A stretch of DNA of 48,151 nt from a virus (Duplodnaviria; Heunggongvirae; Uroviricota; Caudoviricetes): positions 1 through 48,151 of IMG/VR virus record IMGVR_UViG_2617270976_000012; one strand, given 5' to 3'. The first letter of the stretch is position 1, and every line of letters starts with the position of its first letter. Both the position numbers and the translations under genes were made by a program. Shown here piece by piece: positions 26,890 to 30,403 of the stretch. The notes beneath the pieces were generated by a model. The model saw nothing but the letters and a program-made list of their open reading frames with translations. It made no database searches and was not told the origin of the DNA.

Positions 26890-28827
26890 GTGACTCTTAA
26901 ACGGGCCTGTTCCCTGCTGACGGTGAAATCCTTCAGTGAGGATGAACGGGTGATCACCGGGATTGCGTCAACGCCTTCTCCGGATCGGGATGGTGACATC
27001 CTGGAGCCGGAGGGCGCGGAGTTTGGCAGTGCGATCCCGTTTCTCTGGCAGCATGACCATTCCCGCCCGGTGGGGCAGTGTACGGTGCGCCGGGTCAGCG
27101 AAGGGCTGGAAATCACGGCAACACTGGTGAAGCCCGTACCGGATATGCCGTCGCAACTGGCTGCCCGGCTGGATGAGGTCTGGGCGGCCATTAAGACCGG
27201 GCTGGTCAGGGGGCTGTCCGTGGGCTTCCGTCCCCATGAATACACCTTTCTGGACGGAGGCGGACTGCATTTTCTGCGCTGGGAGCTGATGGAGGTGTCT
27301 GCCGTCACCGTGCCCGCGAATGCCGAATGCACCATCCGGGCCATTAAATCTTACGACCGCCCGTTTTCTGCCGCGTCCGGCAACCGGAAACCGGTGGTGA
27401 AAATCGCATCTTCTGCCGGCGCTGCGGCACAGTCAACAACCGTTTTTCATAAGGAAAAGACCATAATGAATATTGGCGAACAGATTAAAAGTTTTGAAAA
27501 CAAGCGTGCAGCGCTGGCAGCCTCCCTTGAGGAGGTCATGACCAAAGCCGCAGAGGAAGGGCGCACGCTGGATGTGGAGGAGGAAGAGCATTACGACAAC
27601 ACCGCAGCGGAAATCCGTCAGGTGGATGCGCACCTGAAGCGCCTGCGTGAACTGGAAGCCGGTAAGGCCGCCACGGCGCAGCCGGTGAAACAGGCCGGTA
27701 ACGGGAATGTGGCCGCGGTGGCTTCTGCGCCGGTGATCCGTGTGGAGCAGAAACTGGATAAGGGGATTGGCTTCGCCCGCTTTGCCAAATCGCTGGCTGC
27801 GGCTAAAGGCGTCCGATCTGAAGCCCTGGAAGTGGCCCGTCGTCAGTATCCGGATGACAGTCGTCTGCATCATGTCCTGAAATCGGCGGTGGGGGCAGGG
27901 ACCACCACGGACCCGCAGTGGGCAGGCAGCCTGTCTGAATACCAGGAATATGCGCAGGACTTTATTGATTACCTGCGTCCGCAGACCATTATCGGGCGAT
28001 TTGGTCAGGGCGGGATCCCTGCACTTCGTCAGGTGCCGTTCAATATCCGCGTGCATGCCCAGGTGTCCGGTGGTGCTGCCGGCTGGGTGGGGGAGGGTAA
28101 GGCCAGACCCCTGACGAAGTTTGATTTTGAATCCATCACCTTCAGTCATGCGAAGGTGTCGGCCATTGCGGTACTGACGGAAGAGCTGATCCGTTTTTCC
28201 AGTCCGGCAGCTGATGCGCTGGTCCGTAATGCGCTGGCAGAAGCGGTGGTGGCGCGTCTGGACACAGACTTTGTGGACCCGAAAAAAGCGGCGGTGGCGG
28301 ATGTCTCCCCGGCGTCCATCACCCATGATGTGAAGGGCACGGCATCAACCGGTAACCCGGATGCGGATGCCGAGGCCGCGTTTGGCCAGTTTGTGACGGC
28401 AAATCTGCAGCCCACCGGTGCGGTCTGGCTGATGTCCAGCACGAATGCCCTGGCGCTGTCCATGCGTAAAAATGCGCTGGGGCAGAAGGAATATCCGGAC
28501 ATGACCCTGCTGGGCGGGACCTTCCAGGGGCTGCCGGTGATTGTCTCCCAGTATGTGGGTGACCAGCTGGTACTGGTGAATGCGCCGGATATTTATCTGG
28601 CGGATGACGGCGGTGTGGCAGTGGATATGTCCCGTGAAGCGTCACTGGAAATGCAGTCTGAGCCGGGCGGCGACAGCAGCACACCGTCACCGGTGGAACT
28701 GGTCTCCATGTTTCAGACCGGCAGCGTGGCCATCCGTGCGGAGCGCTGGATCAACTGGCGTCGTCGCCGTACCGCGGCAGTGGCGGTGATCACCGGTGTG
28801 AACTACGGAACTGCGTCCGGTGGCTGA
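26890..28827 (+). CDS. HK97-family prohead protease fused to major capsid protein
   Basis: N-terminal about 170 aa protease-like (FLWQHDHSRPVG), coiled-coil delta-like region, C-terminal HK97-fold capsid region; GTG start with GGAGG RBS. Confidence 0.75.
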   Translation: MTLKRACSLLTVKSFSEDERVITGIASTPSPDRDGDILEPEGAEFGSAIPFLWQHDHSRPVGQCTVRRVSEGLEITATLVKPVPDMPSQLAARLDEVWAAIKTGLVRGLSVGFRPHEYTFLDGGGLHFLRWELMEVSAVTVPANAECTIRAIKSYDRPFSAASGNRKPVVKIASSAGAAAQSTTVFHKEKTIMNIGEQIKSFENKRAALAASLEEVMTKAAEEGRTLDVEEEEHYDNTAAEIRQVDAHLKRLRELEAGKAATAQPVKQAGNGNVAAVASAPVIRVEQKLDKGIGFARFAKSLAAAKGVRSEALEVARRQYPDDSRLHHVLKSAVGAGTTTDPQWAGSLSEYQEYAQDFIDYLRPQTIIGRFGQGGIPALRQVPFNIRVHAQVSGGAAGWVGEGKARPLTKFDFESITFSHAKVSAIAVLTEELIRFSSPAADALVRNALAEAVVARLDTDFVDPKKAAVADVSPASITHDVKGTASTGNPDADAEAAFGQFVTANLQPTGAVWLMSSTNALALSMRKNALGQKEYPDMTLLGGTFQGLPVIVSQYVGDQLVLVNAPDIYLADDGGVAVDMSREASLEMQSEPGGDSSTPSPVELVSMFQTGSVAIRAERWINWRRRRTAAVAVITGVNYGTASGG

Positions 28828-29038
28828 GTCTGATGAGGAGGGCGGGAGGCGCGAGCTTCCCGCAGTAACAGATGGCAAAAATCCAGTATCTGCAGGGCAC
28901 GCATGATGCCCGGGCCGGGGATATCCGTGATGTGGCACAGCCGTGTGCGGAGGTGCTGGTTCGCCTGGGGAAGGCGGAGTACATCACAGCGCGACGTCCG
29001 GCAGGTCAGAAAAAGAAACGTGATGCGGAGCATGGCGA

Positions 29039-30403
29039 ATGTGGAACCTTTTGCGGCGAACCCGAAAAAACCAGAAATCAGGACGTGACGTAAGAGAAGT
29101 GGGCTGGCGGTCCCTGTTTCAGGCGGTGGCTGAGCCTTTTGCCGGTGCCTGGCAGCAGGGTGTGAAAGCCGATCCGGAAACCGTTTTGTCCTTTCACGCG
29201 GTGTTTTCATGCATTTCGCTGATATCCCAGGATATTGCCAAAATGCGGCTTCGCCTGATGCAGACTGATGTACAGGGAATACGCCGGGAAAAGCGGCAGG
29301 GAGATACTGCCCGTCTCTGTCGTCGTCCTAATGCACAGCAGAATCGCATCCAGTTTTTTGAACTGTGGCTGAATTCCAAATTGCGTCACGGCAATACGGT
29401 GGTGCTGAAAATCCGCAACCCCCGGGGGCAGATCAAAGAACTGCGTATTCTGGACTGGAACCGGGTTGAACCTCTGGTGGCGGATGACGGCGACGTGTTC
29501 TACCGCATCACGCCGGACCGGAACTGTGGGATCACGGAGTCGGTGACGGTGCCTGCCCGGGAGGTGATCCACGACCGTTTTAACTGTTTTTTTCATCCGC
29601 TTGTGGGGCTGCCGCCGGTGTATGCCGCAGGACTGGCCGCCATGCAGGGGCATCATATTCAGGCAAATTCGACGTATTTTTTCAGAAATGGCGGGCGACC
29701 ATCAGGCGTGATTGAGGTCCCCGGCAGTATTACGGAAGAAAACGCGAAAAAACTGAAGGGGAACTGGGACAGCGGATATACGGGCGAAAATGCCGGGAAG
29801 ACGGCCATACTGAGCAACGGGGCAAAATACAGCCCCACGACGTTTTCACCGGTGGATGCGCAGACGGTGGAACAACTGAAAATGACGGCTGAAATTGTCT
29901 GTTCGGTGTTCCGTGTCCCGGCCTACAAGATTGGCGTTGGCCACCCGCCTTCCAGTGACAACGTGGAGGCGCTGGAGCAGCAGTATTATTCCCAGTGTCT
30001 GCAGACGCTGATTGAGTCCATTGAGCTGTTACTGGATGAGGCGCTGGAAACGGGGGAAAACGAGAGCACGGAGTTTGACGTCACCACGCTGCTGAGAATG
30101 GACAGCGAACGGCGCATGAAAACACTGGGTGAATCGGTGAAAAATACGCTTCTCACGCCCAATGAGGCCCGTAAACGTGAGAACCTGCCGCCCCTTGCCG
30201 GCGGTGATGCACTGTATCTTCAGCAGCAGAACTACAGTCTGGAGGCGCTGTCCCGTCGTGATGCCCGTGAGGACCCGTTCGCGTCGGCCGGGAAAACAGT
30301 TTCAGCACAACTGCCTGACGGCGCATCTGACGGTAATAAGGCAATCAGTGAAACAGAGCATGATGCAGTGAAAGCGATGTTCAGGGGGATACTGAGAAAA
30401 TGA
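29039..30403 (+). CDS. Portal protein (HK97 family)
   Basis: NGGRPSGVIEVPGSITEE...AYKIGVGHPPSSDNVEALEQQYYSQ parallels HK97 portal motifs as recalled; start uncertain. Confidence 0.8.
   Translation: MWNLLRRTRKNQKSGRDVREVGWRSLFQAVAEPFAGAWQQGVKADPETVLSFHAVFSCISLISQDIAKMRLRLMQTDVQGIRREKRQGDTARLCRRPNAQQNRIQFFELWLNSKLRHGNTVVLKIRNPRGQIKELRILDWNRVEPLVADDGDVFYRITPDRNCGITESVTVPAREVIHDRFNCFFHPLVGLPPVYAAGLAAMQGHHIQANSTYFFRNGGRPSGVIEVPGSITEENAKKLKGNWDSGYTGENAGKTAILSNGAKYSPTTFSPVDAQTVEQLKMTAEIVCSVFRVPAYKIGVGHPPSSDNVEALEQQYYSQCLQTLIESIELLLDEALETGENESTEFDVTTLLRMDSERRMKTLGESVKNTLLTPNEARKRENLPPLAGGDALYLQQQNYSLEALSRRDAREDPFASAGKTVSAQLPDGASDGNKAISETEHDAVKAMFRGILRK

Follow-up and report, generated by a model that had tools for sequence, protein, structure and literature searches.

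In phage HK97, the prohead protease (gp4) and the major capsid protein (gp5) are encoded by two genes, in the order portal, protease, capsid, and gp4 is said, after work by Duda et al. in 2013, to be recruited through its C-terminal tail. A joined form of the two proteins has been described in the Pseudomonas phage PAJU2, in which ORF003 (UniProt P85500, capsid polyprotein) is named "prohead protease fused capsid protein"; self-cleavage of this polyprotein was proposed by Uchiyama et al. in 2009, as cited in PMC8306868. Furthermore, actinobacteriophage genes are routinely annotated as "major capsid and protease fusion protein" (PMC6606914, PMC9671004, and PMC12760985), and phages of the Arthrobacter clusters AN/AU/AW and of the Microbacterium cluster EE carry, by annotation, the same domain fusion. 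Here, we analysed the IMG/VR record IMGVR_UViG_2617270976_000012, a stretch of 48,151 nucleotides (nt) from a virus of the class Caudoviricetes (hereafter, the window), focusing on positions 26890-30403. In this region, a single open reading frame (ORF) of 645 amino acids (aa) joins an HK97-type protease to an HK97-fold capsid protein, and it is followed by a small ORF of 73 aa and by a portal gene of 454 aa, all three at exactly the positions given in a preliminary description of this DNA. We read the region, with high confidence, as the core of a head block built around a protease-linker-delta-capsid fusion.

The region 26890-30403 matches 93 phage records with ~94-99% DNA identity, including Stx1a-, Stx2c-, and Stx2a-converting (Stx, Shiga toxin) phages, 2851, 1717, and BP-4795, and the genera Pankowvirus and Marienburgvirus. 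The closest matches are Stx1a-converting phages, with 98.9% DNA identity. Judging from these matches, the window is a long-tailed lambdoid Stx-type (Stx1a/Stx2c-type; Pankowvirus/Marienburgvirus-like) E. coli phage or prophage. In BP-4795 (ORF56), 2851, 1717, YYZ-2008, JLK-2012, and Stx2a_F349/WGPS, the fusion protein is 96-99% identical and has the same neighbours; there is no difference of substance, and the window contains one more copy of the gene. The label "putative major head protein/prohead protease" is already present in BP-4795, YYZ-2008, JLK-2012, and Stx2a_F349/WGPS. The fusion and its layout are thus known, widespread, and annotated years ago, and finding them again matters little, as the gene is already annotated in well-known Stx phages and its counterpart in PAJU2 was proposed to be self-cleaving. 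What might be new is a single element: a start codon with its own ribosome-binding site at the beginning of the capsid part, inside the ORF, which the preliminary description missed. A literature search on protease-capsid fusions retrieved no paper on the E. coli gene and no report of internal initiation in its family.

The features of the fusion gene are the following (SD, Shine-Dalgarno; pLDDT, predicted local distance difference test).

26879-26884, + strand: SD sequence AGGAGG of the full-length ORF, ~5-6 nt before the GTG (anti-SD duplex of -10.3 kcal/mol)
26890-28827, + strand: protease-capsid fusion ORF, 645 aa, with a GTG start and the stop codon at 28825-28827
26890-27321, + strand: protease domain, residues 1-144, beta-rich; codons of His55 at 27052-27054 and of Ser110 at 27217-27219
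27322-27465, + strand: linker, residues 145-192, disordered and fast-evolving (pLDDT <50 at residues 145-190)
27451-27455, + strand: internal SD-like AAGGA, inside the linker
27466-27468, + strand: internal ATG (Met193), ancestral start of the capsid gene and proposed second initiation site
27466-27687, + strand: delta/scaffold-like domain, residues 193-266, with helices at 195-223 and 229-262 (pLDDT >90)
27688-27738, + strand: disordered segment, residues 267-283 (pLDDT <50), between the delta domain and the capsid body
27739-28824, + strand: HK97-fold capsid body, residues 284-645

Profile searches recognised both domains of the 645-aa protein. The Pfam model PF04586 (Peptidase_S78) matched residues 48-152 (E = 2.5e-8, 34.7 bits against a cut-off of 21), PF05065 (Phage_capsid) matched residues 386-635 (E = 1e-14, 55 bits against 24.2), and TIGR01554 (major_cap_HK97) covered residues 204-584 with 80 bits (cut-off 27.5). 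Moreover, the PHROG family phrog_617 (PHROG 617) covered the protein over its full length (E = 1.5e-260). The combination of an HK97-type protease and an HK97-fold capsid protein in one ORF, as claimed in the preliminary description, is therefore well founded. Chance is not a serious alternative for the three ORFs, because they are long and their hidden Markov model matches lie above curated cut-offs.

One result weighs against the protease assignment: the narrower model TIGR01543 (proheadase_HK97) scored 48 bits, below its cut-off of 59. For this reason, the assignment rests on the Pfam match, on the fold, and on the catalytic residues. Residues H55 and S110 of the fusion align with H65 and S114 of HK97 gp4, which we take to be the catalytic residues of that protease, and they are nearly invariant among 52 homologues. 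The protease part has an assemblin-like fold, with T4 gp21 as fold match, and the capsid part has the HK97 fold. The low TIGR01543 score would also suit a degenerate, inactive protease retained merely as extra scaffold, with maturation performed by another enzyme. We consider this highly improbable: the catalytic His and Ser and the match to T4 gp21 argue against it, the ratio of nonsynonymous to synonymous substitution rates (dN/dS) of the domain is 0.07, as low as that of the portal, and no second protease gene was found in the head module on the basis of the ORF list, Pfam, and the related loci.

The AlphaFold2 model of the fusion, obtained from an alignment of 52 diverse homologues (mean pLDDT 79.7), clearly showed, in this order, a protease domain, a disordered linker, two helices, a further disordered segment, and, from residue 284, an HK97-like body. 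The domain boundary prediction called for in the preliminary description thus separates the protease (residues 1-144) from the linker, the delta helices, and the body. The two long helices predicted for the capsid part (195-262) are followed by the disordered segment, and by analogy with HK97 gp5 we regard residues 267-283 as the candidate region of maturation cleavage.

The fusion shares with HK97 gp4 and gp5 the protease family, the catalytic pair, the capsid fold with a predicted delta domain at the N-terminus, and a hairpin downstream of the capsid gene; HK97 differs in having the two proteins in two genes and the portal first. The PAJU2 protein is 48% identical over the full length. PAJU2 also has the same gene order (terminase, fusion, small ORFs, portal, and downstream ORF), an internal methionine with AGGAGG, and a hairpin after the capsid gene; it differs in its Pseudomonas host and in having two small ORFs instead of one. 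The NCBIfam family NF045541 ("prohead protease/major capsid protein fusion protein") has the same described architecture, with a partial match at residues 48-287; the score of 54.3 bits against a cut-off of 525 places the 645-aa protein in a different family.

Then, we evaluated how widely the fusion is conserved. The cluster of the 645-aa protein at 99% identity includes 9,916 sequences, and homologues of 644-648 aa that carry both Pfam domains are found in at least ten further enterobacterial genera, including Salmonella, Enterobacter, Klebsiella, Serratia, Pantoea, and Kosakonia. A total of 12,685 relatives were found in a library clustered at 50% identity, and full-length fusions account for more than 130 of its top 150 representatives (38-54% identity). 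Every domain is under purifying selection, with dN/dS values of 0.07 for the protease, 0.11 for the delta domain, 0.05 for the capsid body, and 0.07 for the whole ORF; the portal has 0.08, and the protease part is thus kept as strictly as the portal. Unfused relatives do exist at 37-39% identity, such as that of the Burkholderia phage vB_FUBS1, and they could lead one to suspect a sequencing or assembly frameshift that merged separate protease and capsid genes. However, the ORF is uninterrupted in 9,916 near-identical and in thousands of diverged sequences produced by independent projects, which leaves this explanation with a negligible probability, and we rejected an artefactual origin on the basis of this breadth of conservation. 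The possibility, raised in the preliminary description, of a frameshift separating the protease and the capsid protein thus no longer holds for an ORF kept in thousands of sequences from many genera and under purifying selection. The GTG start at 26890 is backed by the conserved N-terminus MTLKRAC, which relatives start with ATG, and by the AGGAGG just upstream, which enteric relatives also have.

Some genes encode two in-frame products, a longer one with a protease at its N-terminus and a shorter one translated from an internal start; such genes are known in phage lambda (C/Nu3) and in herpes simplex virus 1 (HSV-1; UL26/UL26.5). Recently, nested protease and scaffold genes have been shown in HFTV1 (gp17/gp17.5; bioRxiv 10.64898/2026.09.13.751334). 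In all these systems, both products share the part that enters the procapsid, and we propose the same logic for the fusion gene. There are two differences: the shared part is a separate scaffold protein in the nested systems and would be the capsid protein with its delta domain here, and two products have been demonstrated in lambda, HSV-1, and HFTV1, whereas for the fusion gene we infer them from sequence. A preprint on the cyclic-oligonucleotide-based antiphage signalling system (CBASS) deals with a protease-scaffold fusion, which is a different case from a protease-capsid gene.

The fusion gene does have a conserved in-frame internal start codon with a ribosome-binding site, as expected of a nested gene. 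Met193 opens the capsid part (MNIGEQIKSFE...), and the separate capsid gene of vB_FUBS1 has its Met1 at exactly the aligned position; several stand-alone capsid proteins of the library also begin at the residue corresponding to 193 or 194 of the query. In vB_FUBS1, the capsid start is preceded by AATAAGGATTCCTTACGCATG, and the stop codon of the protease gene overlaps the ribosome-binding site (TAAGGA). Among 27 non-redundant fusion genes (<90% identical), 26 have ATG or GTG at the aligned position, each with an SD-like motif a few to ~12 nt upstream; in the 27th (L073), the ATG lies two codons upstream, with an offset of the alignment. The spelling of the motif ranges from AAGGA in the enteric clade up to GAGGAGG in a distant clade, and the linker residues encoded over it differ among relatives (HKEKTI, KKGNNT, PEEGD, PKEGTE). 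In PAJU2, AGGAGG lies upstream of Met197.

Coherently, the region stands out within the gene. The column of Met193 ranks first of 631 alignment columns for mean anti-SD pairing strength; a conserved start codon is found in only four columns, of which the remaining three rank 130-277. Within the ORF, mRNA structure is weakest in the 40-nt windows around codons 185-198, with columns 194-196 ranking 1-3 of 619. Furthermore, linker residues 161-192 have a dN/dS of 0.74 and a synonymous rate (dS) of 0.42, about four times lower than the 1.5-1.7 observed elsewhere. Such a combination of low dS and fast amino acid change is the pattern expected of an RNA-level signal embedded in a coding sequence.

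These results suggest, with moderate probability, that ribosomes also initiate at position 27466, which would give a free delta-capsid protein. We are also inclined, by a little, to think that the protease-capsid genes of this family are nested two-product genes, in which the ratio between the starts would set the protease dose per prohead. Several points weigh against both proposals. The case for two products is one of sequence conservation. In the enteric clade, the internal SD has only moderate strength (-5.4 to -6.2 kcal/mol; percentile 4-16% within the gene), and a Lys/Gly/Glu-rich linker tends by composition alone to favour AAGGA-like, A-rich, and unstructured RNA. The upstream start has a stronger SD (-10.3 kcal/mol), which means that the less abundant product may not be the full-length one. 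Finally, by a rough volume estimate of our own, 415 protease-delta moieties could fit into a T=7 prohead, in which case an internal start would not be physically required.

The same points would fit a pure polyprotein, in which all capsid subunits are the 645-aa fusion made from the GTG at 26890 and the internal ATG and SD are an unused relic of an ancestral, separate capsid gene or a by-product of linker composition: the stronger upstream SD, the moderate internal one, and the room for 415 moieties are all compatible with it, as is the interpretation of the PAJU2 homologue as an autocatalytically cleaved capsid polyprotein, in the account given by PMC8306868. We regard this as possible, though rather unlikely. 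Indeed, a relic should decay in a linker with a dN/dS of 0.74, whereas lineages with as little as 46% identity still have the ATG and the SD, the latter in different spellings. The low dS of the linker, the top-ranking SD column, and the least-structured mRNA stretch also speak against it.

Two further observations concern the two starts. Positions 27449-27455 read CATAAGGA, with an out-of-frame TAA at the point where the protease gene of vB_FUBS1 ends with its in-frame TAAGGA (compare positions 2540-2546 of locus L090); this hints that the fusion arose through a reading-frame change just upstream, which bypassed the old stop. The full-length start is GTG in the E. coli phages and ATG in Salmonella, Serratia, and other relatives, and all of them have ATG as the internal start. 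Should both starts be used, the GTG would lower the share of the full-length protease-capsid product in E. coli.

We can thus outline how such a gene would work in the assembly of the head. In the 645-aa product, a serine protease of the HK97 gp4 type (His55/Ser110) is joined through a disordered linker to a capsid protein with its own N-terminal coiled-coil delta (scaffold-like) domain. The N-terminus of HK97-type capsid proteins faces the prohead interior; therefore, an N-terminal fusion would carry the protease into the shell, with no separate C-terminal targeting tail. The covalent link would in this way replace the tail recruitment reported for HK97 gp4. According to the two-start model, the gene would yield the full-length fusion (from GTG 26890) and a 453-aa delta-capsid protein (from ATG 27466, with its own AAGGA). 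Both forms would enter the same assembly, and the amount of packaged protease would be set by how strong one start is relative to the other. Once assembly is complete, the predicted proteolytic activity would cut away, at putative sites, the protease domain along with the linker and the delta domain, and the mature capsid protein would have ~360 aa. Self-processing of the capsid protein, as implied in the preliminary description, is the natural reading of this arrangement and agrees with the 2009 proposal for the PAJU2 homologue, as far as PMC8306868 relates it. Since the capsid part has its own start and ribosome-binding site, not every subunit need be a polyprotein.

If the internal start is used, two precursors of ~70 kDa and ~49 kDa and a tunable protease dose are to be expected in the annotation and in structural or proteomic studies of this very common head type, and the logic of lambda C/Nu3 and UL26/UL26.5 would be extended from the scaffold to the capsid protein itself. 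Of 5,426 complete E. coli genomes, 1,056 carry the junction region (median copy number, two).

The preliminary description also placed the portal gene after the fusion, which is correct (454-aa ORF at 29039-30403), and presented both the fusion and this order as departures from the canonical portal-protease-capsid arrangement, but neither is unusual: the gene was already annotated as a fusion, and the order is fixed across the lineage. We compared 80 IMG/VR loci, retrieved with a profile of the fusion (46-99% identity), as well as prophages of Salmonella and Serratia. Wherever a locus contained enough downstream sequence, down to 46% identity, the portal gene came after the fusion. The order large terminase (TerL), protease/capsid, portal is also found in PAJU2, and the unfused Burkholderia phage vB_FUBS1 has it as well, with a protease of 212 aa and a capsid protein of 444 aa in separate genes. 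The order thus appears, from this conservation, to be a fixed trait of a large lineage and not a local rearrangement, and we saw no demonstrable mechanistic consequence of it. The fusion loci of actinobacteriophages are described as having the portal gene first.

Three further features lie between the capsid stop codon and the end of the portal gene.

28835-28863, + strand: conserved GAGGAGG (28835-28841), then directly a GC-rich hairpin of 9 bp (28842-28863), whose 3' arm is 8 nt from the ATG of the small ORF
28872-29093, + strand: small ORF, 73 aa
29039-30403, + strand: HK97-family portal, 454 aa, complete

The preliminary description located the 73-aa ORF and left its status uncertain; by its conservation, it is a real head-module gene under purifying selection. 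It matches phrog_829 (PHROG 829; E = 8.3e-39), its orthologues in enteric relatives are 33-60% identical, and its dN/dS is 0.13 (first 40 codons). The family has a core of ~55 aa, M..[IV]RY[LM][QK].THD...G....A.VL.L...E[YF], with a basic tail. The protein has no Pfam or NCBIfam match, and a profile of 18 orthologues gave no match in the PDB. The small protein of most relatives is 51-56 aa long, its stop codon falling at the portal ATG or just ahead of it. Loss of this stop in the E. coli lineage has added 18 non-conserved residues and created a 55-nt overlap with the portal gene (29039-29093) in another frame. The label "portal protein (x2)" had led us to suspect that the 73-aa ORF was the N-terminal piece of a split portal. 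We rejected this idea, as the second "portal" of those records is the downstream repeat ORF, the small ORF has a conserved family of its own, and the portal start is conserved at 29039.

The 73-aa ORF lacks a ribosome-binding site next to its start codon, and a GGAGG is found directly before the 5' arm of the hairpin. The layout of stop, GGAGG, 7-9-bp hairpin, 7-10 nt, and ATG is present in all ~40 distinct relatives, and the pairing of the stem is kept through compensatory changes (folding z-score of -3.5). The hairpin may bridge the ribosome-binding site of the small ORF, and it may also, or instead, stabilise or terminate the capsid message at its 3' end. T4 gene 38 is a precedent for a hairpin that unites the SD and the start codon. 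A GC-rich hairpin directly 3' of the capsid gene is found here, in PAJU2, and in HK97, where it is annotated as a putative terminator, and it could raise the expression of the capsid gene over that of the downstream genes. Another terminator-like hairpin with a T-run (GAACCGCTCCGGCGGTTT TTTTATTTT) lies at 26851-26877, between the TerL stop and the ribosome-binding site of the fusion gene; thus, the capsid gene is flanked by hairpins on either side.

The identity of the 454-aa ORF as a portal, on which the preliminary description depended, is clear. PF04860 matched it over profile positions 2-321 of 321 (E = 2.3e-79) and TIGR01537 over positions 2-343 of 343 (365 bits against a cut-off of 112), and it also matched solved portal structures (9lbn_H, E = 2.7e-27; 8cez_A, "Portal protein", E = 1e-18). 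Its start at 29039 is backed by the motif MW[NT][PL][FL]R, conserved in Salmonella and Serratia relatives.

The genes around the 645-, 73-, and 454-aa ORFs form, on the basis of the ORF list and Pfam, a standard packaging and head module. The head block reads HNH, TerS, TerL, protease-linker-delta-capsid, small gene, portal, repeat protein, and gp6-like adaptor, and its remaining members are as follows.

23949-24314: HNH endonuclease, in the upstream packaging/head module
24605-25168: small terminase (TerS)
25165-26826: large terminase (TerL)
30400-31785: repeat-containing ORF, 461 aa, with an ATGA overlap with the portal stop
31782-32108: gp6-like head-tail adaptor

In RefSeq, the portal is joined to the next ORF as "phage portal protein, frameshifted", and some GenBank records treat it as a pseudogene. 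Spans of this type, covering the portal and the next ORF, are also found in other loci (L004 and L005, 3700-6284; L001, 6150-8729). The annotation is due to a run of Gs at 30384-30388, which has five Gs in the window and six in phage 2851 and a few other records; with six, the portal and the downstream ORF become one protein of ~859 aa. The two-ORF state with start/stop overlap is the conserved one in other genera. We gauged the prevalence of the two states by the size of protein clusters: the 454-aa clusters include ~4,700 sequences against ~13 singletons of 723-784 aa. These clusters come from ENA and Logan and not from NCBI, as expected if the NCBI pipeline suppresses the 454-aa portals as pseudogenes. 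Given the conserved two-ORF state and these counts, the "frameshifted" call of RefSeq is probably wrong and, like the pseudogene calls, an annotation artefact. With such a label, Stx prophages that are intact, and possibly inducible, would be taken for defective by automated assessments.

We also considered a programmed -1 frameshift from the portal to the downstream ORF at A_AAA_TGA (30397-30403), and we rejected it in favour of a start/stop overlap with translational coupling. The first three junction sequences all had an A before AAA; among ~45 distinct junctions, the preceding base varies (ACC, GCC, ATC, and GCT before AAA TGA), and other lineages have ATGAATGA or other overlaps at the portal junction.

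The downstream 461-aa ORF contains 4.3 copies of a 162-bp (54-aa) tandem repeat at 30625-31319. The number of repeats is strain-variable, and the stop-to-stop spans of the ORF range from ~311 to 581 codons (936-1746 nt). The conserved C-terminal domain of the protein carries a CBM5/12-like YxPGDxVTWGGSLW motif, and its only matches were weak CBM5/12-like ones and All3316 (7b5h_AE, E = 2e-4). Several databases name the protein "portal protein" only through the fused variants. In three distant lineages, the portal domain and the homologue of the downstream protein form one natural ORF (L062, 7169-10915; L064, 7169-10621; L088, 7465-9321) of 618-1248 aa, with a low-complexity Pro/Asp/Asn linker. 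These natural fusions suggest that the downstream protein probably works physically with the portal.

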